Virus record (IMG/VR): IMGVR_UViG_3300048835_000020
Coordinates: 1-25,341 of that record
DNA from: a virus
Taxonomy: Duplodnaviria > Caudoviricetes
DNA length: 25,341 nucleotides
Strand: one strand, 5' to 3'
The notes beneath the pieces were generated by a model, which worked only from the letters and a program-made list of their open reading frames with translations, was not told where the DNA came from and did no database searches. The position numbers and the translations under genes were made by a program. Positions within the stretch are counted from its first letter, which is position 1; each line of letters starts with the position of its first letter. Shown in pieces: positions 1-21,560 of the stretch.

Positions 1-24
1 TGTCCGGATGCCCGGTGGGCGTCC

Positions 25-90
25 GGACAACGCTCAAGTTGTGCGGCGCGAAGCCGCAGGCGTAGCGTCCGAACGAACGGAGGGTTAGCA
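25..90 (-). mobile_element. attC-like integron cassette recombination site 1 (66 bp)
   Basis: Minus strand reads R'' TGCTAAC, 5-nt spacer CCTCC, L'' GTTCGTTC, 26-nt core, L' GCACAAC, 6-nt spacer TTGAGC, R' GTTGTCC. It is an imperfect palindrome with the extra C at L'' position 4. Confidence 0.8.
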
Positions 91-93
91 GGG

Positions 94-708
94 ATGCGGG
101 TATTAGTGGCATGCGAGTACAGCGGCAGAGTGCGGGATGCGTTCCGTGCGCTCGGGCATGAGGCGATGAGTTGCGACCTGTTGCCGACAGAGGTTGAAGG
201 GCCGCACCACATGGGCGACGTGGCGGAGTTGCTGCACATGGGATGGGACTTGATGATTGCACACCCGCCATGCACGCACCTGGCCGTAAGCGGTAGCCGC
301 TGGTTTAAGGACAAGGTGAAGGAACAGGCCGAAGCGCTGGCATTTGTGCAGACGCTGATGGATGCGCCAATCTCCATGATTGCGATTGAAAATCCGATAA
401 GCGTTATTTCAAGCCGCATTCGCAAACCTGACCAGATCATTCAGCCGTGGCAGTTCGGGCATGGGGAAACGAAAGCGACATGCCTGTGGCTGAAAGGACT
501 ACCGAAGCTGACGCCGACGAATGTGGTTGAAGGGCGCGAGGCGCGGGTGCATCGGATGCCGCCAAGCCCCGACCGATGGAAGGAGCGGAGCAGGACATAC
601 CAGGGCGTTGCTGATGCGATGGCGGCGCAATGGGGCGTGCCTGCTAACGACCAAATTCAGGGGGCCGAGCCGCTTGCGGCGAAGGCTCCCTCTGGAATGC
701 CGGGTTAG
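94..708 (+). CDS. Short phage-type DNA cytosine methyltransferase (cassette-borne)
   Basis: N-terminal SAM-binding-like RVLVACEYSG, catalytic DLMIAHPPC (motif IV PC) and IENP (motif VI-like). The last ~20 codons run through attC site 2. Confidence 0.75.
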   Translation: MRVLVACEYSGRVRDAFRALGHEAMSCDLLPTEVEGPHHMGDVAELLHMGWDLMIAHPPCTHLAVSGSRWFKDKVKEQAEALAFVQTLMDAPISMIAIENPISVISSRIRKPDQIIQPWQFGHGETKATCLWLKGLPKLTPTNVVEGREARVHRMPPSPDRWKERSRTYQGVADAMAAQWGVPANDQIQGAEPLAAKAPSGMPG

Positions 709-710
709 CC
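642..710 (-). mobile_element. attC-like site 2 (69 bp)
   Basis: Minus strand: R'' GGCTAAC, CCGGC, L'' ATTCCAGA, 29-nt core, L' CCTGAAT, TTGGTC, R' GTTAGCA. Confidence 0.85.
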
Positions 711-723
711 GGCAACTTTAACT

Positions 724-1119
724 ATGGAGACTGACATGAACAAAAAGCAGATTGACCAGATGGTGAACCGCTTCCTTGGTTGGAAGCTGCCAAAGGACTT
801 CGCCCCGGACGCTGGAATTTCGTTCAAGCCGACGGAGCCATACGAGGGCGACGAACTCGGCAATTCGTGGTGGCCGATTGGAACTAACCTGCTGACGGCA
901 GACCAGGCGCGGGCCATGATTTCGCACATGCTGGCCGATGTGGTTCCCGTGGAAGATTTCAGGGATGTGATTAAGTACGCAGACGAGCTTTGCGTCGCGG
1001 TGGATCGCGCAGCGGAGGACATCGGCGGAAGCAGGCCGACCAGAGAGATTCTGGCCGACCTCGGGCCGGCGACGGACAAGGCAATGAGGGCTATGGAGCA
1101 GTACGGACATGCCGGCTAA
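724..1119 (+). CDS. Hypothetical phage protein (cassette-borne)
   Basis: 131-aa ORF filling the space between attC 2 and attC 3. Its TAA stop lies within GGCTAAC. The real start may be the second Met, which follows GGAG. Confidence 0.75.
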   Translation: METDMNKKQIDQMVNRFLGWKLPKDFAPDAGISFKPTEPYEGDELGNSWWPIGTNLLTADQARAMISHMLADVVPVEDFRDVIKYADELCVAVDRAAEDIGGSRPTREILADLGPATDKAMRAMEQYGHAG

Positions 1120-1239
1120 CGTGCAAGGTAACAGGCTCGCCGCTGGTGGCGCGGCCAAAGAAGGAGACTAGCAATGAACAACGACAGCGCAGAAACGAAG
1201 GCGGATTGCGGCGAGTCCTCGTTGACCGGCGGGTTAGGC
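1114..1239 (-). mobile_element. attC-like site 3 (126 bp)
   Basis: Minus strand: R'' GCCTAAC, CCGCC, L'' GGTCAACG, stem AGGACTCGCCGC...GCGGCGAGCC, L' TGTTACC, TTGCAC, R' GTTAGCC, with a long variable loop. Confidence 0.85.
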
Positions 1240-1563
1240 TTGATGCCTACGCCGGACTGGTGGCATTACAAGATTAACGGCGAATGGGACGGCTTCAGCC
1301 GAGTTCGCCCACCGGATGACGCATTCGACGAAGGGACGTTAGTCCCACTTTACGCCAAAGAGCCAGCAAGCGTTGAGTCGGTAGCGGCTGGACTTACTTT
1401 CTGCTGCGGTAAAGAAGAAAAGCTTACGCTGGAAATTGCTGCACTTCGGAACGTCGTGCAATCGGCAATGCTTGCGGGATGTGTAGAGGTATTTTCCGCT
1501 TGGAACTACCACTTCCCGGACAATCAAATAGAGCCGTACAAGAAGACGCCTAACGTGAAGTAG
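1174..1563 (+). CDS. Hypothetical protein (cassette-borne)
   Basis: 129-aa ORF with a strong AAGGAG RBS located inside the attC 3 loop. It is visibly more AT-rich than the phage backbone. Confidence 0.7.
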   Translation: MNNDSAETKADCGESSLTGGLGLMPTPDWWHYKINGEWDGFSRVRPPDDAFDEGTLVPLYAKEPASVESVAAGLTFCCGKEEKLTLEIAALRNVVQSAMLAGCVEVFSAWNYHFPDNQIEPYKKTPNVK

Positions 1564-1580
1564 CGGACAAAACGTCAAGT
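1548..1580 (-). mobile_element. Putative attI-like or secondary insertion site heading the cassette array
   Basis: Minus strand ...GTTTTGTCCGCTACTTCAC-GTTAGGC. It has a GTTRRRY core complementary to the R'' of attC 3, but no upstream palindrome. Confidence 0.5.
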
Positions 1581-1596
1581 AAACGGAATATTGGAC

Positions 1597-1677
1597 ATGA
1601 CTACTCCGTCTTGGACTGCCGCAATGGCGCTCATGCTGAAATACCAGCGCATGCGCCTCACCCTGGAGGCAGCATGA
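1597..1677 (+). CDS. Possible 26-aa peptide or gene remnant (MTTPSWTAAMALMLKYQRMRLTLEAA)
   Basis: ATG at 1597; its TGA overlaps the next ATG (ATGA at 1674-1677). It is below the ORF-track cutoff. Confidence 0.35.
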   Translation: MTTPSWTAAMALMLKYQRMRLTLEAA

Positions 1678-1892
1678 CCCAGGCCGCCCTCCTCATCCTC
1701 TCCGCCGCCGCCATGTGGCTCGTCTCCGGCCGCAGCCGGCACGCCTGCCTCGGCTGGGCCTTGGGGCTGGCCAGCCAGCCGCTGTGGCTGTGGGAGACCT
1801 GGCAGGCGGCGCAATGGGGCATGTTCGCCTTGGCCGTGTTCTACACCGGCGCCTGGGCGCGCGGGCTGGCGAACCACTGGAGAGGCGCATGA
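1674..1892 (+). CDS. Small membrane protein (72 aa, about 3 TM, loosely PnuC-like phage family)
   Basis: GGAGG RBS, hydrophobic Trp-rich sequence (GWALGLASQPLW...QWGMF), and ATGA coupling to the next gene. Confidence 0.65.
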   Translation: MTQAALLILSAAAMWLVSGRSRHACLGWALGLASQPLWLWETWQAAQWGMFALAVFYTGAWARGLANHWRGA

Positions 1893-2158
1893 GCGACATC
1901 ACCCGCCAGCAGCTCTGTGCCGCGCTCGGGATCTCCGAATCCACCGTGCGCCGGCTGGAATTGGACGGCCTGCCCTACACCCCGGTCGGCCGCCGCGCGA
2001 AGAGGTACAATCTGGCCGAGGTCAAAGGCTGGCTGAGGGCGAATTGTCGATCTGGACTGACGAAGACGGGCGGCTGCACGTCGGCATCATGGCCGGCGGG
2101 CGCCGAATTCACCGCCGCCTGCCGGCGGGTGCATCTAAGGGTGCTGCCAAGCAGCTAG
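1889..2158 (+). CDS. xis: Excisionase / HTH DNA-binding protein
   Basis: MerR/Xis-like HTH (ITRQQLCAALGISESTVRRLELDGLP...RYNLAEVKGWL), directly upstream of and overlapping an integrase N-terminus. Confidence 0.75.
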   Translation: MSDITRQQLCAALGISESTVRRLELDGLPYTPVGRRAKRYNLAEVKGWLRANCRSGLTKTGGCTSASWPAGAEFTAACRRVHLRVLPSS

Positions 2159-2340
2159 AGGCAGATATGCGCGCCGCGCTCGGCCGCGCTCGCGTGCCAG
2201 TCATCCCAGGCGACCCGCCGCTCGCCGGCATCATGGAACTCTACCTCGATCACGCCGCCGGGCTGCGCAGCCCGGAGACCGCCCGCCACCACCGCTGCCA
2301 GCCGATCAGGCCGGCACGCCACTCCCGGCAGTCGGCGTAG
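2044..2340 (+). pseudogene. int: Truncated phage tyrosine integrase (N-terminal arm-binding part only)
   Basis: Arm-binding-like start (SIWTDEDGRLHVGIMAGGRRIHRRL...AKQLEA) followed by the start of a core-binding helix (YLDH...LRSPETARHH). It overlaps xis. There is no catalytic domain, and after ~2292 the frame is simply the antisense of Rz. Confidence 0.65.
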
Positions 2341-2747
2341 TTTTCGGCGACGGTTTCGAGGGCGGCAGCGTCCGCAACTCGTTCGGCGTCTCCAGCAGCC
2401 AGGCGGGCGGGGTCGGCGGGTTCGCCGGTCGCTGCTGCGTCGTGGAGCAGGCGCCAAGCGCCATCGAGATCGCAACGGCGAGCGGCAGGGACGATGGTTT
2501 CATAACGAACGACCTCCTTGATGATGGTGCGGGCCTTGGGGATGCGCTTCTCGCGCTCGGCGGACAGATCGGCGGCGAGGGTGTCGGCGGCGGTCTGGCG
2601 GCGCTGGATCTCCTCGGCGTAGGCCACGGCCTGGGCGTGCAGCCTGGCGGCCTCATGATCGCCGCGCAGACGCCAGCCGGACGCGGCGGAGAGGGCCAGG
2701 GCGGCGAACAGGCCGAGGAGGATCCAGGGATTTATGATTGACGGCAT
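2250..2747 (-). CDS. Rz: Inner-membrane spanin (Rz-like)
   Basis: Follows the endolysin. GGAGAGG RBS, N-terminal TM helix, Ala-rich coiled coil and two Cys; contains a nested lipoprotein gene. Confidence 0.8.
   Translation of the reverse strand: MPSIINPWILLGLFAALALSAASGWRLRGDHEAARLHAQAVAYAEEIQRRQTAADTLAADLSAEREKRIPKARTIIKEVVRYETIVPAARRCDLDGAWRLLHDAAATGEPADPARLAAGDAERVADAAALETVAENYADCREWRAGLIGWQRWWRAVSGLRSPAA
2306..2503 (-). CDS. Rz1: Outer-membrane spanin lipoprotein (Rz1-like), nested in Rz
   Basis: AAGGAGG RBS, signal peptide MKPSSLPLAVAISMALGA-C with lipobox, and a Pro-rich mature part (PPTPPAWLL), in an alternate frame inside Rz. Confidence 0.8.
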   Translation of the reverse strand: MKPSSLPLAVAISMALGACSTTQQRPANPPTPPAWLLETPNELRTLPPSKPSPKTTPTAGSGVPA

Positions 2748-7230: not shown

Positions 7231-8276
7231 GTCGAGAGTCCTTCAACGGTGAGGCGGCATTCCGAAAACGAGGGGTAGGCGATGACGACGCCGAAGTCGG
7301 CGTAGAAACCGTAGATCAACAGCGAGTCGTAACCGTAGCGGTCGTCTCCGATCCAGACGACGGGCGTGGCGCGCACCCCGGCCAGCAGGCGGGCGACGGC
7401 GTCGACGCGGTGGCCGTCGAGCAGCACGTTATAGCGCGCGGTCTTGGCGTAGCCGCGCTCGGTGACGGTGGTGACGCCGTAGGCGTCGGTCGATTTGACA
7501 CTGTAGTCCTTGATGCCGATCTCCGGCGCGCGCAGGGTGTCGCCGATGGCGACGATGCGGCCGATGGCGAGCGTGCCGACGGCGGCATTTTCGCCCGCGT
7601 TGATGGTGATGGTGATCGCCCCGGTCGGCGGCAGGTCGTCCACCACCAGCGAGGTCTGCGGATCGAGCGGCATGAAAAAGTATTCCCACCAGCCCAGGCA
7701 CAGGCGGCGGTCTTCCATCTCGTAGGTCTCGTCGTAGATCGGGCCGCCGGAGTCGACTTCGACCTGGACGCTGGTGGCGACCAGATCGAGCAGCGCGAGG
7801 CCGTTGACGGTCTCGGCCGGGGTGAGCGTGACGACGATCGGCGACGGCGCACTGGTGATGGTGCCGACCGCCCGGTCGAAGCAGGCCCAGCGGTTCGTCG
7901 GGCCGATGTCGAGCCACCGGGTGCCGTCGTCCGTGGTCGGGTCGTGGCCGGTGTTGGCGCCCTGCACGCTCTGGTAGATGCGGTGCGTGGTGGCGGACAA
8001 CACGATGTCGTCGGCGGCGTAGGTGGTGCCGCCGGCATATGCCGAGTATGTCGTGCCGATGTTCTCCCACCAGGTCGGCGAGCTGGCCGGTGTGTTGCCG
8101 GTGTTCGAGTTCTGCAGCGAGCGCCAGGCGGTGATGACGCCGCCGACGGTGCCGGTCGAGCATTCGTCGTCCAGCGCGTAGGTCGTCCCGGCGTTGTAGG
8201 CGGCGGGCGGCGTCTCGACCACGCTGCTGGCGGTGAGCTGCGCGTCGGTGACGGCGATCGGGCCGAGGAATTTCAT
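7227..8276 (-). CDS. Distal tail (Dit-like) protein with carbohydrate-binding-like inserts
   Basis: 349 aa directly after the tape measure gene (ATGA overlap). Two Y..GTTYA.DD CBM-like repeats, GPTNRW.CFD and DYS.K.TDAYG motifs. Confidence 0.7.
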   Translation of the reverse strand: MKFLGPIAVTDAQLTASSVVETPPAAYNAGTTYALDDECSTGTVGGVITAWRSLQNSNTGNTPASSPTWWENIGTTYSAYAGGTTYAADDIVLSATTHRIYQSVQGANTGHDPTTDDGTRWLDIGPTNRWACFDRAVGTITSAPSPIVVTLTPAETVNGLALLDLVATSVQVEVDSGGPIYDETYEMEDRRLCLGWWEYFFMPLDPQTSLVVDDLPPTGAITITINAGENAAVGTLAIGRIVAIGDTLRAPEIGIKDYSVKSTDAYGVTTVTERGYAKTARYNVLLDGHRVDAVARLLAGVRATPVVWIGDDRYGYDSLLIYGFYADFGVVIAYPSFSECRLTVEGLST

Positions 8277-11200
8277 GCTGTCGTCCTCGTGTAGAGGCTG
8301 CGCCCGCCTCGGGCGGAGGAGTCGAGCACGTCCGCCGCCGTCCGGGCATGGTTGGCGATGGCGCTGTTCTCCGCGCTGTTCGCCTGGCGCAGCAGCGCGA
8401 CTTCCTGGCGCAGCAGCGCGCCTTCCGCACGCAGGGCGCGCAGCTCGGCGGCTATGTCGCCGCTGCCGAGCGCCTGGATCAGGGCGCGGTTGTCGGCGGC
8501 CGGGATGATGCGTTCTCCCTCGTGCACCAGGGCCAGTGTGTCGCGCGGGATGAAGCTGCTGCCAGCCGCGTAGGCCGGCACCTCCAGCCCGAAGGTCTGC
8601 GCGAGGCCCTGGACGGTGCGGTCGAGGCTGGCCAGGGTGCGGGCGGTGAGCAGCGCCTGCTCGACGGCGGTCGAGGCTTGCGATTTGCCCAGTTCGACCA
8701 CCGCCTGCGCGAGCGTGGGCAGTTGCCCGGCGGCGTCCTGGTTGCCGGCGCGGGCCTGCGCGGTGGCGATGGCGAATTCGGACTGCGCGCGGGCGAAGGT
8801 CTGCTCCGGCCCGAGGATGTCGCCGCGCAGGCGGCGCATGGTGTCCCAGATCGAATCGGCCACGCGCTGCCATCCGTCGCGCAGTTCCTTCTGCGCGCGG
8901 GCCTGTTCCTCGGCGGCGCGGCGGGCGGCTTCGGCGGCTTCGGCCTGCAACCGGGCGGCTTCCTCGGCGGCGCGGCGGGCGGCTTCGGCGGCTTCGGCCT
9001 GCAACCGGGCGGCTTCCTCGGCGGCGGCGCGGGCATCCTCGGCGGCCCATATCTGTTCCTTCAGCGAACGCAGCGCCTCGTCGGTGCCTTCCAGTTCCAG
9101 GGCACGACGGGCGGCGGTGGCGCCGGTCTCGTCGCCCTGCGCCTCCATGAGCTGAATCTCCAGCTCGCGCCGGGCGGCCATGTCCTGACGCCGCCAGACG
9201 GCGTTCTGCAGGTCGAGCTGGTCTTGGTCGGTGATCGAGGCGCGCACGTCCTGGCGCCGCATCTCCTTGGCCCAGTCTGGCCGGCCATAGGCCTCGGCCC
9301 ACTGGATCGACAGGCCGCGCATGGTGGCGGCCTGGGCGGCGGCGGCGTCGGCCTGGGCGGCGGCGGCGTCGGCCACCACGTCGAAGGCGGGGGCCAGCTT
9401 CAACAGGCCGGCGAACAACTCCTGCCCGGCTTCAGTCGTCAGGTCGAGCCCGTCGATGATGGCGCGGAAGGCATCATGCGTGTCCGGCATGCTCAAGCCG
9501 AGATCGCCGAAGGCTTCGGCGACGTTCTCCGTATGCGCGGCGAGGCGCTCGGCCTCGCTGTAGAATTCCTGGTAGTACGCGGCGAACTGCTGGCCGAAGG
9601 CTTCGCGCCCGCCGAAGGCGTCGGCGATGTCGGTGGCCAGCACGGCGGCGTCGAGGCTGAAATCCAGCGCCGCGCGGCCCATCAGGTCGAAGGCGTCGCG
9701 CACCGCGACGAGGTCGGAGATCAGCCGGGTGAAGGTATCGGCCAGCGATTCGCCGTCGCGGGAGAGCGCGGAGACGACCGTGTCGCCGCCAGCACCGCCG
9801 GCGTTGAGGTTGTTGATGTACGAATCCATGAACGTGCCGGACTGCGCCTGCACGATGGCTTCCCCCGCCGCCGTCTCGAAGGTGCCGATGAAGGCGCGGG
9901 CGAGCTCCTCGGCGCCCTCCACGCCGCGCACCGAGAGCAGCGTGGCGATGGCGGTGTAGGAATCCTCCAGCGAGCCGCTGAAGGCATCGGCGATCTCGTC
10001 TACCCAGCCGCCGATGGCGTCCGAGACGAGGCCAAGGCGCTTCTCGAAGTGCGCGCGCATGGCGGCCTCCGAGTAGTCCTCCATCTCGCCGGTGGTATAG
10101 CCGGCGATGCTCTGCTCGATGCGCTTGTTCTCGTCGCCCGTCAGCATGCCGCTGATGGCGTAGTCGCGCTGGGCGATGGGGGCGAAGGCGTCGCGCAGCT
10201 TGGCGACCTCGGCCTCGGTGTCGCCCATATGCTGCCCCGCGAAGCGCAGGTCGCCCCAGGGCGTTGCGAGCGGAATGCCCCAGTCCTTCGACCCCTGCGG
10301 GAACTGCGTCCACGCGGCGACGGGGGGCTTTTCCTTGCCGCCGAAGAGGTCGCCGCCGAAGAGGGAGAGCAGGCCGAGGCCGATGCCGATGTAGGGCAGC
10401 GCGGTGCCGAGGCCAGTCAGAGCGGCACCGCCGCCCCCCACAGCACCGCCGACTCCAAGCGCGGCGGCCTCTTCGAATATTCCTGGAACCAGGGCCGAGA
10501 GGCCGAGCGATTGGCCGGCGGCAGAGGTGGCAAAGTTGCCATACATCCCGCCGCCGCCAGTGAAGTTGTTCGCAAGCGAGAAGATGTTCCCCAGACCGCC
10601 GCCGCCGGCGCCGCCCTGCGTGTAGCCGAGCGCCTGACCAACGCTGCCCATCACCGGCTGCACCACCATCTGCACGGCGATCTTCAGCGCGGCGGTCTTG
10701 AGCGTGTTCTGCAGGGTCTTGACGAAGTTCTCGCCGAAGCCCTCGCCCGACTCGAAGCCGCGCATCAGGGCGTCGGTGAGGCTCTGCTCGATGTCGCGGG
10801 AGAAGTTCTCCCAGGCTTTGGCGGATTCTGCGGCGGCTTTCTTGTTGGCGTCGAGGATTTCGCGGCTCAGATAGCTGTCGCGCAGGCGGCGGCGCGCTTC
10901 GATCTCGCGGTCGATGCCGGCGACAACATCCTCCTGCCCATCAATGCCGGCGGCAATGGCGCGGCGCTCCTCCAGCCGGGAGATGATGAGGGATTCGATC
11001 TCCGACTTTGCCAGCCCGTAATAGCGGATTTCGTCCTCTGCCGCCTGCGCTTTTTTCTCTATCGAGGCGATTTCCTTTTCGCGTTCCCTCTGTGCGTTGT
11101 TCGCCGCCTTGGCCCATTCAGCATCAGCCGCCGCCGATGCCTTGACGGCATCCTGGTGGAACTTCTGCTGCGTCACCAGCAGTTCAACGGCGCGGCGATA

Positions 11201-12862
11201 GGCGTCGATGTCGCCCGTCTTGAGGTATTGCTTGTGCAGCGTGTCAAGGTCTTTCCAGAAGGACGAAGACAGGCCGGAATCCTGCGCGGTAAGCTTGTTC
11301 ATAAGCTCCGCGTATTCGTCCTTCACCGCCTTGATGCCGGCCTTCGCTTCTTTCGTCTTTTCGGTGAACTTGTCCATGACACCGGCTACGGCGGCGAGGT
11401 AGTCTTTCTGGTTCTGGCCGGTCTGCGCGGATTTTTCATACTGCGCGGTCAACTTCAGCAATTCCCGCTGCTTCTGCTCTTCCTTGGACAAATACTTGTC
11501 GCGTTCCTGCAGCAAGGCAATGCCGGCCTTTTCCTGCTCGTTGGCCCTGGCCTTGGCGGCGGCAGCATCGTCTTGCGCTTTCACCTGCGCCTTGAGCGCG
11601 GCCAGTTCGGCATCCTGTTCAGTAGTGCGATGCGCCGTGAAGAAGCCGCGCCCCTGGGCGGTTTCCAGTTCCTTGATGCGATCCTGCAAGGTCTGCTTGC
11701 GCCCGACGCCGAGCATCGCATCCCATGCGGATTTCGCCTCGCTGGCAACGCCCTTCCACAACTTTTCGATGTAGCCAAGGTTCTGTTCGATCTCTCCGGC
11801 GCGGCTGGTCAGCGCGTCCGCATAAGCCTTTTGCGCCAGCGCCGCCGCTTCCACCGTCATGCCCTGTTCTTCCAGCGCCTTGATCTGCCGGAAGATGGAT
11901 TCAGTAAGATGATTCGTCGTCTCGTTGAGCTTGAGCGAGGCGGCAACAGGCGCTTTGCCGAGTTCGGCGAACTGATCGACGGTTTCCTTCACAGCAACGC
12001 CGGCCACTTTCTGCATGCGCAGCGCGGCATCGGCAACGAGCTTGATGTTCTCGCCGGAAATCTTGCCGGTGCCGGCGGCAAGCGCGAGGGCTTCGGCGGC
12101 AGCGCCCTGCGTAGCCGCGCCGGTAGCCTTGATCTGCGACGCCATGCCGGCCAGGGCATTGGCAGACGTGCCGGCGGCATTGCCGGTGAGTATCAGTGAT
12201 TTGGCGTAGGCGTCCGCCTCTTTGCTGCCCTGGTAATAGGCCACGGCCAGGCCGCCAGCGGCGGCGGTCAACAGGGTATAGGGGTTGATGAGGCGGACAA
12301 GATAGCCGCCCATAGCCTTGGCCGCATTGCCGACGCCGCCAAACATGTCCTTCAGTTGCCCGCCCTGCTGCAGCAGAACGGTAAGCGGACGCTGGCCGGA
12401 TGCGAGGGAAGTGAATATGTCGGTGAATTGCGCCGGCACGCCACGCATGGCGAAGGCCATTTCCTTGGCGGACAGGCCGGTGCGGGCGTTGGCGCGGGCA
12501 AGGGCTTCGGCCTGCTGTTCGGCCAAGCGCAGGTCGCCGATCAGCCCGCGAAACTTGGCCGGATCGTAGCCGCGAATGCTGATGAGTTCTTCAAACTTTG
12601 CAGACCCGCCTTGTCCGAGGGAGCGCATTTCCGCCGTGGTGCGCTGGATGGCGCTGGCGATGCTGCGTTCGGCGCGCGTGAACTTCTCCGCCGCCTGTTC
12701 GCCGGCCTTGCCAGCGGCATCCATCCCCTGCCCAGCCTGCGCGCCGGCCTGCTGCACCTTCTGCGCCATCTGCGCGGCGGCATCGCCGACAGAGGCAATT
12801 TCCCGGCGTGCGTCTCCCGCGTTCGCTTCAATCTCAAGCTGGAGCTTGTGGTTATCGCTCAT
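8273..12862 (-). CDS. Tail length tape measure protein (lambda-like)
   Basis: 1529 aa, Ala-rich and helical, with the PAQFTDIFTSLASGQ.PLTVLLQQGGQLKDMFGG signature; follows the tail chaperones. Confidence 0.95.
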   Translation of the reverse strand: MSDNHKLQLEIEANAGDARREIASVGDAAAQMAQKVQQAGAQAGQGMDAAGKAGEQAAEKFTRAERSIASAIQRTTAEMRSLGQGGSAKFEELISIRGYDPAKFRGLIGDLRLAEQQAEALARANARTGLSAKEMAFAMRGVPAQFTDIFTSLASGQRPLTVLLQQGGQLKDMFGGVGNAAKAMGGYLVRLINPYTLLTAAAGGLAVAYYQGSKEADAYAKSLILTGNAAGTSANALAGMASQIKATGAATQGAAAEALALAAGTGKISGENIKLVADAALRMQKVAGVAVKETVDQFAELGKAPVAASLKLNETTNHLTESIFRQIKALEEQGMTVEAAALAQKAYADALTSRAGEIEQNLGYIEKLWKGVASEAKSAWDAMLGVGRKQTLQDRIKELETAQGRGFFTAHRTTEQDAELAALKAQVKAQDDAAAAKARANEQEKAGIALLQERDKYLSKEEQKQRELLKLTAQYEKSAQTGQNQKDYLAAVAGVMDKFTEKTKEAKAGIKAVKDEYAELMNKLTAQDSGLSSSFWKDLDTLHKQYLKTGDIDAYRRAVELLVTQQKFHQDAVKASAAADAEWAKAANNAQREREKEIASIEKKAQAAEDEIRYYGLAKSEIESLIISRLEERRAIAAGIDGQEDVVAGIDREIEARRRLRDSYLSREILDANKKAAAESAKAWENFSRDIEQSLTDALMRGFESGEGFGENFVKTLQNTLKTAALKIAVQMVVQPVMGSVGQALGYTQGGAGGGGLGNIFSLANNFTGGGGMYGNFATSAAGQSLGLSALVPGIFEEAAALGVGGAVGGGGAALTGLGTALPYIGIGLGLLSLFGGDLFGGKEKPPVAAWTQFPQGSKDWGIPLATPWGDLRFAGQHMGDTEAEVAKLRDAFAPIAQRDYAISGMLTGDENKRIEQSIAGYTTGEMEDYSEAAMRAHFEKRLGLVSDAIGGWVDEIADAFSGSLEDSYTAIATLLSVRGVEGAEELARAFIGTFETAAGEAIVQAQSGTFMDSYINNLNAGGAGGDTVVSALSRDGESLADTFTRLISDLVAVRDAFDLMGRAALDFSLDAAVLATDIADAFGGREAFGQQFAAYYQEFYSEAERLAAHTENVAEAFGDLGLSMPDTHDAFRAIIDGLDLTTEAGQELFAGLLKLAPAFDVVADAAAAQADAAAAQAATMRGLSIQWAEAYGRPDWAKEMRRQDVRASITDQDQLDLQNAVWRRQDMAARRELEIQLMEAQGDETGATAARRALELEGTDEALRSLKEQIWAAEDARAAAEEAARLQAEAAEAARRAAEEAARLQAEAAEAARRAAEEQARAQKELRDGWQRVADSIWDTMRRLRGDILGPEQTFARAQSEFAIATAQARAGNQDAAGQLPTLAQAVVELGKSQASTAVEQALLTARTLASLDRTVQGLAQTFGLEVPAYAAGSSFIPRDTLALVHEGERIIPAADNRALIQALGSGDIAAELRALRAEGALLRQEVALLRQANSAENSAIANHARTAADVLDSSARGGRSLYTRTTA
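8906..9026. repeat. Perfect 54-bp in-frame tandem repeat (~2.2 copies) in the tape measure gene
   Basis: Units start at 8906, 8960 and 9014; encodes AAEEAARLQAEAAEAARR. Confidence 0.9.
9328..9374. repeat. 21-bp in-frame tandem repeat (~2.2 copies) in the tape measure gene
   Basis: CGGCCTGGGCGGCGGCGGCGT twice; encodes ADAAAAQ. Confidence 0.8.
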
Positions 12863-16392: not shown

Positions 16393-17610
16393 TCAGGTCG
16401 CGCTGTTGGCGTAATACTTGACTGCCGCCGTATTGACCAGGTTGCCGCCGCTGCGCATCCACATCAGGAAACCGATCTGGCCGAGCTTAGCGTAAGCGGA
16501 ATCGCTGAAGCGGAAGAGCGTGGCGGACATCACGTCGCGGATGATGTACTTGGAGAAGTCGCCAAACAGGATCGACTTGGCGTTCGCGCTCATCGTGGCA
16601 ACGTCCTGGTTGATGGTGATGCCGTAGCCGAGCAGGCTGTCGGGCATGGCGCCGCCGAGGCCGTCGTATCCGGGCAGGAAGACAGGCCGGTTCTGGCTGT
16701 CCTTCAGCTTGCGGATGACCTTCAGCGAGGCATCATTCATCATGAAACGGCAGCGGCCGGAGCCACGGTAGGCCGGGTCGACCGAATGGATCAGGTCGAT
16801 CAGGTCTTCAAAGATGACTGTGGCCGTCTGGCCGGTGGTGCCGACCTTGCCCGAGGACGCGCCCGTTACCACGCCGCGCGGCTGGGCGGTACCCGTGCCG
16901 GTGGTGAAGTAGGTGTTGGTGGCGCGGCCAAGGCGCTCGACAAGACGCGCCCGGATGAAAGCCTCGATGTCGACCTGCGAGTCCTGAATCAACTCGAACG
17001 GCACGGCAACGATCTTGGACGAGAACTTGTACGCATTCACGGACACGGTGCCGAAGGTCGGATCAGCCCCCGTCGCGGTGGTGTTCTCCGCGATCAGCTC
17101 GCCGGTCTCCGAGGTGCCGTCCGTTGTCGGGAACGACAGCGGGTTGCCCATTTCCGTCTGAATGACGGTGGAGGCTTCGCGCATGCCGCCGAACGCTTTC
17201 AGTGACTCGATCAGCGTCTTGGCGACATCGGATTGCACCGAGTAGCCGCCTTCGGACGGGGTGGTGGTGCTCATGGTGGCGCGGATGCCGGCCCATTCTT
17301 CAGCCGACAGGGCGTTGTCGCCGCCGCGCAGCCACTTGGCAAAGAGCATCGCAGAAGGCGACTTCTTGTCGACAGCGGCCTTTTCGGCGGCTACGGCAGC
17401 GCCTTGCTGCATGGCGTCTTTGGCCATCTCGTCCAGCAGCGCCTGATGGCGGTTGATCTGGTTTTCCAGATCGGCGATTTCGGCCATTCCTTCGTCGTAC
17501 TTGGCCTGGAAATCGTTATTCCACTTGTCGCCGGGGTTGTCATTCAGCAGCTTGTGCAGTTCTTTGGCGCGGGTGCTGCGGCGTTCCCGCATGGCTTGGA
17601 TGCTCGTCAT
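16393..17610 (-). CDS. Major capsid protein, HK97 family
   Basis: 405 aa; N-terminal coiled-coil delta domain, EGGY, GTGTAQPRG, LKDSQNRP and FGDFSKY motifs. Confidence 0.95.
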   Translation of the reverse strand: MTSIQAMRERRSTRAKELHKLLNDNPGDKWNNDFQAKYDEGMAEIADLENQINRHQALLDEMAKDAMQQGAAVAAEKAAVDKKSPSAMLFAKWLRGGDNALSAEEWAGIRATMSTTTPSEGGYSVQSDVAKTLIESLKAFGGMREASTVIQTEMGNPLSFPTTDGTSETGELIAENTTATGADPTFGTVSVNAYKFSSKIVAVPFELIQDSQVDIEAFIRARLVERLGRATNTYFTTGTGTAQPRGVVTGASSGKVGTTGQTATVIFEDLIDLIHSVDPAYRGSGRCRFMMNDASLKVIRKLKDSQNRPVFLPGYDGLGGAMPDSLLGYGITINQDVATMSANAKSILFGDFSKYIIRDVMSATLFRFSDSAYAKLGQIGFLMWMRSGGNLVNTAAVKYYANSAT

Positions 17611-18591: not shown

Positions 18592-19263
18592 TTACGCCCC
18601 GCGCCAGAGGTTGCCGCTGGTGCCGTCGCCGAGCACGGCGGCGCTGTTGATCTTTTGCACGTCCACCGGGATGGTGGTGGCGTTGAGGGCATCGACCACG
18701 ACGGCAGCGAGATTCTCCGGCGACAATTCGGTAAAAGGCGTCCACTCGCCGATCATGGCCAGCTTCCCGCGCAAGTCGGCCTCGCCGATGAAGCTGAAGC
18801 TGCCGCTGCCGCCGAATGGCACGATCATTGCGAGGTTCGGCGTGCCGGTGAGACTCCAGCTTCCGGTGCCGTCCATGCCGATGGTCAGGCGCAGCACCAT
18901 GCCGTCGGCGCTCACGCTGACGACCGCAGCGGTGCCGGTCATGCTCACGACGACGGACAGGCCGCCGGTCTGCGACAGCGTCAGCGTGCCGTCGCCTTCC
19001 ATCGGGCCGCCCTTGAGCAGGTCGCCGGTCGGCGCGAAGTCGGCCACGCGGCGCAGCGCGGAAAGGCTGCCGGCGGTGAGCGGCGGGCAGAATGCCCGCA
19101 TGCCATAGCCGTCTGGCGTGGACGCATTGGCCGCATGCTCCGCGCCGACAAAGCGGTTCAGGCGGTCGCCCAGGCCTCGCGCGTAGACGTCGAGGCCGGG
19201 GGCGGCGCCGAAGTGCCGCGCCCGCACCATCGTCATGTAGCGGCCGTTCGGGTAGAGCGCCAT
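18592..19263 (-). CDS. Hypothetical G/A/T-rich protein, putative virion appendage
   Basis: 223 aa with beta-strand-like repeats, tightly packed in the operon. Confidence 0.7.
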   Translation of the reverse strand: MALYPNGRYMTMVRARHFGAAPGLDVYARGLGDRLNRFVGAEHAANASTPDGYGMRAFCPPLTAGSLSALRRVADFAPTGDLLKGGPMEGDGTLTLSQTGGLSVVVSMTGTAAVVSVSADGMVLRLTIGMDGTGSWSLTGTPNLAMIVPFGGSGSFSFIGEADLRGKLAMIGEWTPFTELSPENLAAVVVDALNATTIPVDVQKINSAAVLGDGTSGNLWRGA

Positions 19264-19264
19264 G

Positions 19265-20143
19265 TCAGCCCCAGACGGTTTCCAGCCCGCCGGCGAAGGT
19301 GGTCGAGGCGGCGGTGGCGGCGCCGGCGCCCCACAGCCACACGAGGCAGGCGCCGTCGTAGATGCGCGGCAGGCTCGGGATCTGGTTGAGCAGGTCCTTT
19401 TCCGTCATGAGTCCGGCCACCGACAGGGTGATCTGCGCGATGGGCCGCGCGAGGCACAGCGCGCCGGTGCCGGTGTTCGCGGCGCTGAAGGTCACGCTGG
19501 CGACGTTCTGCACGCCGGAGTCGCCCGAGGCGAGCGGCAGGAAGGGTCCGTAGTTGTTCGCGGCGACGCCGGAGTGCGAGATGTGCCCGGCGATGCCGGA
19601 GGCGGTCATGGCGACGGTGACGGGCAGGGTGTTGCCGGTGTTGGCGGACTGGTCGGTGTAGCTCAGGGCGATGTTCTGCGCGGTGGCGCCGGCGGCGGAG
19701 GTCTGCACCCAGTAGAGGCGGCAGCCGGCGCCGTTGGCATAGCGCAGGCTCGGCGTGCCGGTGAGGGTCTGCGCGCTGGAGGTGTTGTTGCTGATGCCGG
19801 GCCAGTAGCCTTGCAGGTCGACCAGCATCAGCGTGCCGGGGACGCCGGTGGCGGCGGTGCTCCAGGCGTTCATGTTGAGCAGATGCTTGATGTCGGTCGA
19901 GACGTTGCCGCCGTGCGGCATGCCGAATATCTGCGTGCCATTGCCGGTGGCTTCGTCGCAGGTTTTCCAGGCGAGCGCGGTGCCGGCCCAGGCGTTGGCG
20001 ATGGGCGAGCCGCCGAGCATGGAAAAGTCGTACCAGCGGCCGGCGGTGTAGGCGCTGCCGCCGGTGATCTTGTTGAAGTCGTAGCGCGTGATCTTCCCGG
20101 CGCTGATGGCGGCGACAAGCTGGTCGATTGATTGGATGGCCAT
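19265..20143 (-). CDS. Hypothetical putative virion protein, paralog B
   Basis: 292 aa from MAIQSIDQL; colinear motif similarity to 20146..21009. Confidence 0.75.
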   Translation of the reverse strand: MAIQSIDQLVAAISAGKITRYDFNKITGGSAYTAGRWYDFSMLGGSPIANAWAGTALAWKTCDEATGNGTQIFGMPHGGNVSTDIKHLLNMNAWSTAATGVPGTLMLVDLQGYWPGISNNTSSAQTLTGTPSLRYANGAGCRLYWVQTSAAGATAQNIALSYTDQSANTGNTLPVTVAMTASGIAGHISHSGVAANNYGPFLPLASGDSGVQNVASVTFSAANTGTGALCLARPIAQITLSVAGLMTEKDLLNQIPSLPRIYDGACLVWLWGAGAATAASTTFAGGLETVWG

Positions 20144-20145
20144 GA

Positions 20146-21009
20146 TTATCCCCAGGCGAAAGTGAAGTTGCCGAACCAGCTCACGGTGCGCGAGGTGCCG
20201 GAGCCGATGCGGTCGAACCAGCCGAGCCAGGCGCCGTCGAGCACGCGCGGGCAATGGAAGCCGGCCTTGCTGTAGAACTCCTTTTCCACGGCGACGTTGT
20301 TGTCGCCCGTCAGGCATGTGCCGAGGATGCGCACCAGATACGCGCAGATCAGGCCGGAGGGCGGCGTGGTGAAGGTGATGGAATCCAGACTGCGGATGCC
20401 GGCGGAGGCTTCGGCCAGCGCGACGGTGAGCGGCCCCACGTCGGCGGCGGCGGCGGCGCGCACCCCGGAGCAGACGAGGTTCTGCCCGGTAAGCGGGACG
20501 TTCTGCGTGACGCTCTTGCTGGTCCCGTTCGTGTCGGTGTAGTTGATGACGGCCACGCCGCTGGCGACGGCCGGAGCGATGTGGTTCACCAGCACCAGTT
20601 GCACGCCCTCCCCGTCCGCGTAGCGCGGCAGGGGCTGCGTGTTATCCATGAACTGCTCGTCGGTGGAATCGCCGTCGATCATGGGGTAATAGCCGAGCAG
20701 GTCGAATATGACGATGGAGCCGGCGCCGTTGAATGTCGATTGCGAAGACCGGAAGGTGGCGGAGGTCAGGTGGCGGTGCTGGCCGCTGGCCACGCCGGGG
20801 AAGTAGATCGCATCATTTTTCTGCGCGACACAGGGCGTGAATTCCAGCGCGGTGCCGACGCGGGCGTCGTAAGGCGGCTGCCCGGCAGAGAACGACGGGT
20901 CAGCCCAGTGCAGTCCGTGCGCGGTGCCGGCGGCCTTGTAGAAGCGCTGCATGTGACAGCGGCCTTCGTCGAAGGCGGCCTGCAGGTCGCTAAGACTCTG
21001 TATCGGCAT
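20146..21009 (-). CDS. Hypothetical putative virion protein, paralog A
   Basis: 287 aa from MPIQSLSDL; colinear motif similarity to 19265..20143. Confidence 0.75.
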   Translation of the reverse strand: MPIQSLSDLQAAFDEGRCHMQRFYKAAGTAHGLHWADPSFSAGQPPYDARVGTALEFTPCVAQKNDAIYFPGVASGQHRHLTSATFRSSQSTFNGAGSIVIFDLLGYYPMIDGDSTDEQFMDNTQPLPRYADGEGVQLVLVNHIAPAVASGVAVINYTDTNGTSKSVTQNVPLTGQNLVCSGVRAAAAADVGPLTVALAEASAGIRSLDSITFTTPPSGLICAYLVRILGTCLTGDNNVAVEKEFYSKAGFHCPRVLDGAWLGWFDRIGSGTSRTVSWFGNFTFAWG

Positions 21010-21118
21010 TGTCGAAAACCTCTACGACGCCGTCCGGGTGGTCGGGACAAGCCGGTTCCGGTTCGCCTTCGACCATCGGCCCCAGCTCGCGCCCGCAGTG
21101 TGCGCAGCGGTATTCCAC
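20990..21118 (-). CDS. 42-aa zinc-ribbon-like microprotein (not in the ORF track)
   Basis: GTG one base after the upstream TGA. MEYRCAHCGRELGPMVEGEPEPACPDHPDGVVEVFDNADTES has CxxC...CxxH, and it overlaps the next start. Confidence 0.7.
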   Translation of the reverse strand: MEYRCAHCGRELGPMVEGEPEPACPDHPDGVVEVFDNADTES

Positions 21119-21119
21119 A

Positions 21120-21560
21120 TCAGTCGACCGTGCCCGTCAGCGCGCCGGCGTTGAACAGCGGCGTGATGCCGGACGAGACGGCGCGCGAGGCGGACAGCGC
21201 GCCGGAGTAGAGGATGGCGGTGGCGCCCGCTGACTCCAGCCCGACGCTGAAGTGGGTGATGGTCTCCGATCCGGCGGTGCATTCGCCGAACTGCACCGTG
21301 GCGGCGTTCGTGACCTGGTTGCCGGAGACCGTCCAGCCGGCGCCGCTGCGCGCAACGGCGACGCGGGCGTATCCGGTGTAGGTGGCTTCGCTGGTGGCCT
21401 GAGTGCCCGCCTCGCCGGGGTCGGCGGTGTGCAGGGCGACGTAGAAGCTGCCGGCGGCGGCGGAGTTCTGCAGCCCGGCGGCATCGCCGACGTTGGCCCA
21501 GTCGGCGTTGTTGAACAGCAGGTTGAGCAGTGCGGTTTCGCTGGCGTTTGACATTGACAT
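21120..21560 (-). CDS. Putative virion structural protein (fibre/appendage base type)
   Basis: 146 aa, AGGAG RBS, YVALHTADPGEAG...E.TY.GYARVAV motif recurrent in phage structural modules. Confidence 0.7.
   Translation of the reverse strand: MSMSNASETALLNLLFNNADWANVGDAAGLQNSAAAGSFYVALHTADPGEAGTQATSEATYTGYARVAVARSGAGWTVSGNQVTNAATVQFGECTAGSETITHFSVGLESAGATAILYSGALSASRAVSSGITPLFNAGALTGTVD

Follow-up and report, generated by a model that had tools for sequence, protein, structure and literature searches.

Organization of the locus

The stretch of DNA analysed here (the window) is a phage contig of 25,341 bases in which the terminase, portal, head, tail, and lysis genes all lie on the minus strand. 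A second contig, L001 (G001), matches it at both ends, over 2,380 nt at 99.96% identity and over 2,994 nt at 100% identity, and if both contigs derive from one phage they join into a closed temperate-phage circle of 42,115 bp. The gene order is lambdoid, with a replication gene, a repressor pair, an exonuclease, the array described below, an excisionase, and an integrase fragment, and this content and order support the placement of the array in the early region by a first-pass annotation of the same DNA. The array and its right flank contain the following features:

1..30, no strand: partial unit, the right portion of a 33-bp gene-less palindromic unit with complementary ends (L001 5891-5923); the window begins within the array
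25..90, minus (bottom strand plus): attC site 1, crossover between 30 and 31; found by covariance model (CM) and rule-based scan
31..647, no strand: cassette A, 617 bp, hairpin 1 plus the methyltransferase gene body; complementary ends, metagenome contig breakpoints
94..708, plus: DNA methyltransferase-like gene (phrog_757), 204 aa; the next hairpin supplies the last 20 codons and the stop
642..710, minus: attC site 2, crossover between 647 and 648; found by CM with and without filters and by DNA folding
648..1119, no strand: cassette B, 472 bp; complementary ends, and one contig match stops at 1121
736..1119, plus: cassette B gene, 127 aa, no known family, with a TAA stop that runs up to the crossover
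1114..1239, minus: attC site 3, long; within its loop the next gene has its ribosome-binding site and its ATG (1174); found by CM
1120..1553, no strand: cassette C, 434 bp, adjoining the attI-like site; complementary ends
1174..1563, plus: cassette C gene, 129 aa, no known family; begins inside hairpin 3 and ends inside the attI-like site
1548..1590, minus: attI-like, putative entry site, where crossover would fall between 1553 and 1554; another attI-like copy starts at 1571
1597..1892, plus: two small genes, in the slot that holds intI in relatives
1889..2158, plus: excisionase-like helix-turn-helix gene (phrog_66; PF12728 below cut-off), the anchor for finding relatives
2044..2340, plus: phage tyrosine integrase fragment, the N-terminal 83 codons with the catalytic part missing, 90% identical to the intact integrase of relative L085

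L001 carries the array on for another 5.3 kb upstream of the window, and the full array comprises 15 hairpins (14 CM matches and one rule-scan match), one partial element, and one terminal half-site, giving 16 units. At L001 5745-5923 (window 1-30) there are two 33-bp palindromic units that lack genes, and the DNA separating them repeats, as its reverse complement, the left arm of the hairpin before; this arrangement may be a template-switch or wrong-strand product. Elsewhere in the window, the portal and head-protease genes are separated by several long genes that match no PHROG (18592-21282), and a 1,529-aa gene at 8273-12862 is opposed on the other strand by an open frame of 1,283 aa; these are likely a tape measure gene and its GC-driven shadow frame.

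The attC sites

Three attC sites had been proposed in the window, and a CM built from bacterial attC sites (27 chromosomal sites and one class 1 site) matches all three, with scores of 35.0 bits at 25-90, 42.4 bits at 642-710, and 33.1 bits at 1114-1239, each with its bottom strand on plus; with the filters turned off two of the three are listed, the long third site being the one missing. The rule-based scan places them at 29-86, 646-706, and 1118-1235, with the top strand on minus in every case, and adds a weak one at 17024-17125; when positions 1-1600 were dinucleotide-shuffled 100 times, the mean was 0.08 matches and the maximum two. An Rfam scan of window positions 1-2500 gave no match. 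The R'' AAC and R' GTT cores, the 5- and 6-nt spacers, and the L boxes are all present, and the order on the plus strand (AAC, 6 nt, stem with an extra G, 5 nt, GTT) is the layout of the published bottom strand of attC aadA7. The assignment of the bottom strand to plus follows from the unpaired, extra-helical alignment columns and from the CM orientation.

Covariation provides further support, as 91.8% of the cells in an 18-site alignment are paired against 70.7% after shuffling (reached in none of 500 shuffles) and at most 55.1% in slid controls, and both sides are altered at 10 of 14 pairs. One site in the array is degenerate (L001 5084), two of its hairpins are identical to each other (L001 602 and 4174), and some are 83-88% identical to chromosomal attC sites. 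With three clustered sites in the window, 14 CM matches and one rule-scan match in L001, and no intI nearby, the locus falls within the definition of a CALIN, that is, at least two clustered attC sites without intI.

Cassettes and their genes

The six end motifs and the 617-, 472-, and 434-bp unit lengths of the first-pass annotation are reproduced exactly, and its claim that each unit has mutually complementary ends holds: on circularization, pairing of the R boxes beyond GTT rises from 0, 3, and 2 to 6, 8, and 4 pairs. Over all 16 units, complementarity holds at 88 of the 96 end positions, where 48.3 are expected, a value reached in none of 100,000 permutations. IntI is reported to recombine folded bottom strands, so that the orientation of a cassette is fixed (PMC5027507), and at this locus it would cut the folded plus strand at AA|C, such that each cassette would consist of a hairpin followed by a gene.

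The methyltransferase-like gene of cassette A has relatives at 79 or more other phage loci, and at 78 of 79 no attC site abuts the gene; because nearly all of these loci lack one, we regard it as an ordinary phage gene that has become a cassette in some lineages. The remaining locus, L074 (5970-6600), has an 84% identical methyltransferase with an attC site at its 3′ end and a decayed core alone at its 5′ end, and is a candidate for the birth or decay of a cassette, while at L020, also among these loci, a weak attC call lies 235 nt upstream. In 26 isolated-phage records the matches are to the methyltransferase and to nothing else from the array. The cassette B protein has no PHROG or Pfam match and no Atlas match of 0.9 or more, and its relatives occur in arrays L082 and L152; a search with the cassette C protein gave no other locus with genomic context. 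Two of the three window reading frames overlap hairpins, a point absent from the first-pass annotation. In one upstream cassette (L001 2451-3058) both genes, one of them of helix-turn-helix type and the other phrog_15793, occupy the canonical strand and are preceded by a palindromic stretch; they look like a self-regulated pair of the toxin-antitoxin type; a related unit is present in L098, with ends that differ yet stay complementary.

An attI-like site at the end of the array

The sites between the last cassette and intI in relatives have a common motif, and a profile built from 38 of them ranks positions 1571 (13.7 bits) and 1552 (10.1 bits) first and second among 513 AAC positions, with the next at 4.1 bits. 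The terminal site, which the first-pass annotation had not described as attI-like, sits where relatives carry attI and intI. The leave-one-out median for the training sites is about 17 bits; both scores are lower than this, in the weak part of the range, and the site may have decayed. An exact search for the terminal site recovered the same phage and one chance match in viral contigs, and none in metagenomes. New cassettes would be predicted to enter at 1553/1554, which is the promoter-distal end of the array.

A different array end is seen in L085 (1036-1296), where the array stops within the start of a resident gene and the last cassette provides the start codon. There is no attI likeness at this point (-18 bits on the attI profile), and it looks like an insertion at a secondary site.

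Gene polarity and translation starts within hairpins

All three window genes lie on the attC bottom strand (plus), opposite to textbook cassettes, which the first-pass annotation did not remark upon, and by inspection of open reading frames 13 of the 14 gene-bearing units of the array are reversed in this way, the exception being L001 2451-3058. As controls, a class 1 integron and phage TJE1 are canonical by the same approach and MW202573 is reversed; in the last, a published phage CALIN (L245, 2069-3738), there are five CM matches in which the bottom strand is the coding strand. Among relatives found through the excisionase, 13 of 50 phage loci contain attC matches, and all 49 CM matches have the same polarity and lie upstream of xis. 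Gene-strand calls upstream of intI, made with a rough longest-ORF rule from which undecided calls were dropped and including near-identical loci, such that the counts are not independent, are 64 reversed and 21 canonical in viral loci, and 30 reversed and 107 canonical in genomes. The attC sites themselves are opposite to intI in both the viral and the genomic set, with nearly all upstream sites across 109 intI loci following this rule.

The reversed polarity is accompanied by a difference in the hairpins. A ribosome-binding site and an ATG are present in 18 of the 49 long hairpins from reversed arrays, and all 18 starts are in frame with the next gene, whereas 1 of 37 long hairpins in canonical arrays has such a start and none (0/37) has one in frame. 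Window attC site 3 is one of the hairpins with an in-frame start in its loop, and the right arm of attC site 1 bears GGAGG just upstream of the methyltransferase start.

A Pc promoter reading from attI into this array would be antisense to the cassette genes. The gene order suggests instead that the whole array would be transcribed from the phage early-left promoter, with a transcript covering the cassettes, then intI where it is present, and then xis; read-through of this kind would select for reversed genes and for translation starts within hairpins. If the replication origin is lambda-like, which we take to be so for this phage, the same polarity would also place the bottom strands on the template for the lagging strand and favor their folding. 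That position is reported to favor folding of attC bottom strands (PMC5371416).

Exchange of cassettes and hairpins

Comparison with related phages, which the first-pass annotation had proposed as a check, shows cassettes whose neighbors change at the AA|C crossover. L143-L145 all contain the phosphoesterase cassette of L001 in other surroundings, and between L144 and L145 the sequence diverges precisely at AA|C at either end of it; L001 unit 1 recurs in L107 and L159. Whole cassettes are common only to phage loci, and none was found in the canonical genome loci among the 80 tested. Among the metagenome contig matches listed, those in all four runs begin at window position 29 with unrelated DNA before it, those in three of the four stop at 649, and in one run a match stops at 1121. 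Upstream cassettes break likewise in metagenome contigs, and some copies have no more than one difference over 330-440 bases; near-identical copies beside other neighbors indicate recent movement. Neither a circle nor a joint that cleanly deletes a single cassette was present among the public metagenome contig matches listed. For the cassette C protein, 6 of 11 relatives were examined, and all six have different tails after the crossover codons, one of them being 99% identical.

Hairpins also change partners near GTT, with one gene body carrying different hairpins in different phages. A single hairpin is found on different genes in the window (25-90), L101 (7744-7809), and L138 (10977-11034), and one gene is found with different hairpins when L001 units 1 and 9 are compared with L107, L144, and L145. 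These exchanges are not explained by AA|C crossovers alone. The unit ends remain complementary, yet they vary between homologous cassettes.

Integrases in the phage and its relatives

The statement of the first-pass annotation that IntI is absent is borne out, as both a PF00589 profile search of G000 and G001 and tblastn with a phage IntI were null. The phage's own integrase was considered as the cassette enzyme and rejected, since it is an ordinary prophage integrase, not an IntI, that is truncated here, with the intact L085 copy adjoining a tRNA-like attachment site; relatives reach about 50 bits with the integron-integrase model, for which the cut-off is 265. In the window the fragment abuts the lysis genes and the attachment site seen in L085 is missing, and unaided integration may be beyond this phage.

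Of 50 excisionase relatives, four (L093, L098, L101, and L107) encode a complete IntI in the position that precedes xis. The three tested, those of L098, L101, and L107, score 466-473 bits against the same cut-off of 265, and the L098 IntI is 58% identical to IntI1 over its length. Ten of the 13 array-bearing relatives have no intI in the DNA examined around each locus. In L138, two further attC-like sites lie downstream of intI (10594-11034), possibly a second array.

To place these enzymes we compared 29 viral and at least 80 genomic IntI relatives, a sample retrieved with a single phage IntI and biased towards that query. A tree restricted to loci with at least two strand calls and a majority (42 rows and two references, with seven rows containing stops or truncations left out) separates 16 reversed-array IntIs from 27 canonical-array ones, IntI1 included, by a branch with 99/98 support. 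A larger quick tree of 102 rows requires four changes, as three single-unit calls fell among its canonical rows. Five of the 16 reversed-array IntIs come from bacterial assemblies, and a phage-type integrase lies just downstream in all four that were checked, suggesting that these loci are likely prophages. Judged by identity, none of the nine isolated-phage records with an IntI-like match is a member of the phage clade, and Rctr41k lies outside it. A LexA-box pattern upstream of intI is too sparse in both groups compared to be informative.

Proposed origin and operation of the array

Taken from sequence comparison, the window is probably the attI-proximal end of a phage integron array with its genes on the attC bottom strand, for which IntI is likely borrowed from a co-resident phage or from the host. 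The proposal that a phage lacking intI contains integron-style cassettes is supported by the CM matches, the complementary ends, the shared cassettes with differing neighbors, and the closed genome, which has no tyrosine recombinase domain; its second part, that a host probably provides the IntI, needs qualifying, because 4 of the 50 related phage loci encode an IntI of their own, of the clade associated with reversed arrays, and the source need not be a host chromosome. Nor are the cassettes just bacterial units that the phage has captured, for the genes are reversed and of phage type and the hairpins bear translation starts. We suggest that intI was lost by this lineage rather than never present.

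The principal alternative is that a host chromosomal IntI alone built and shuffles the array, that the first cassette entered at a secondary site of the attG type, and that intI was never present, which would alter the source of the enzyme and the history of the array and leave the mechanism unchanged. IntI is reported to insert cassettes at minimal GWT sites (10.1101/2022.09.11.507474), and five of six attC sites tested from other phages were recombined by IntI1 (PMC9892861); the L085 array end and the resemblance of some hairpins to chromosomal attC sites are consistent with such an origin. We nevertheless consider it unlikely, as the terminal site is attI-like and is placed where relatives have attI and intI, and whole cassettes were shared with none of the canonical loci among the genome loci tested. 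Less likely again is the suggestion that the hairpins are of attC origin and that shuffling now proceeds by phage homologous or microhomology recombination, or by replication slippage, and not by IntI. The exchange of hairpins relative to gene bodies near GTT, the two identical hairpins in L001, and the exonuclease gene upstream of the array would all fit this, and small cassettes have been reported to excise without integrase (PMC5371416), but the breakpoints fall at a three-base AAC between unlike hairpins, and the complementarity of unit ends that differ between homologous cassettes fits passage through a circle. Least probable of all is that the array is an inert relic of a single capture from a bacterial integron, its hairpins merely spacers or translation signals, since, for all the missing intI, the truncated phage integrase, and the degenerate site, the gene polarity is opposite to that of bacterial arrays and near-identical cassettes lie beside other neighbors in public metagenomes.

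Returning to the reading of the window as part of a phage integron array, we tentatively extend it, at somewhat less than even odds, to temperate phages of Proteobacteria as a group, which might run an integron system of their own, with an IntI clade, a pool of reversed phage-gene cassettes, and exchanged hairpins that provide starts and tails, and which integrase-less phages would use in trans. If so, cassettes would be seen as they are born from non-cassette genes, as the methyltransferase relatives without abutting attC sites illustrate. The array makes the origin of gene cassettes testable, the same phage genes being found both as cassettes and as plain genes. It also points to a site-specific way in which some of the mosaicism of phage genomes could arise, within the accessory region that separates the recombination genes from xis/int, and suggests that integron logic can be rewired, with the enzyme family and sites kept, the gene polarity opposite, and a phage promoter used for expression. 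Its cassettes form a pool of small mobile phage genes of unassigned function that is open to screening for roles in counter-defense or host takeover.

Comparison with known systems

The closest published counterparts are the phage CALINs of Qi et al. (2023; PMC9892861), which are attC clusters without intI and often include a DNA methyltransferase cassette, as here. Those arrays have 2-4 sites, whereas the present one has 15 hairpins and an attI-like site, and its relatives include phages that encode IntIs of the phage clade. Gene polarity is absent from the main text of that paper, and the TJE1 array is canonical and MW202573 reversed by our analysis. Integrase-less phage arrays have thus already been published; for the reversed polarity and the phage IntI clade, our literature search, in which subscription journals were barely covered, found no description, and the available text of PMC13323075 and 10.64898/2026.03.17.712381 adds nothing on either.

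The SALINs and attG insertions of Loot et al. (10.1101/2022.09.11.507474) similarly involve IntI acting in trans on DNA without intI, although those are single cassettes at minimal sites rather than a long ordered array with an attI-like head. In the inverted-integrase integrons of Treponema (PMC4889954), intI and the cassette genes run in the same direction, as they do in this phage lineage; across the 109 intI loci, however, upstream attC sites lie nearly all on the strand opposite to intI. The array shares its attC architecture and extra-helical bases with class 1 and betaproteobacterial chromosomal integrons (PMC4889954, PMC5027507), and the relatives' loci also have in common with them an intI opposite to the attC top strand and an attI just upstream of intI. 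It differs from them in that the bottom strand encodes the genes, which read in the direction of attI and intI and would place the newest cassette last in the transcript, and in that the hairpins precede the genes and can bear their start codons.
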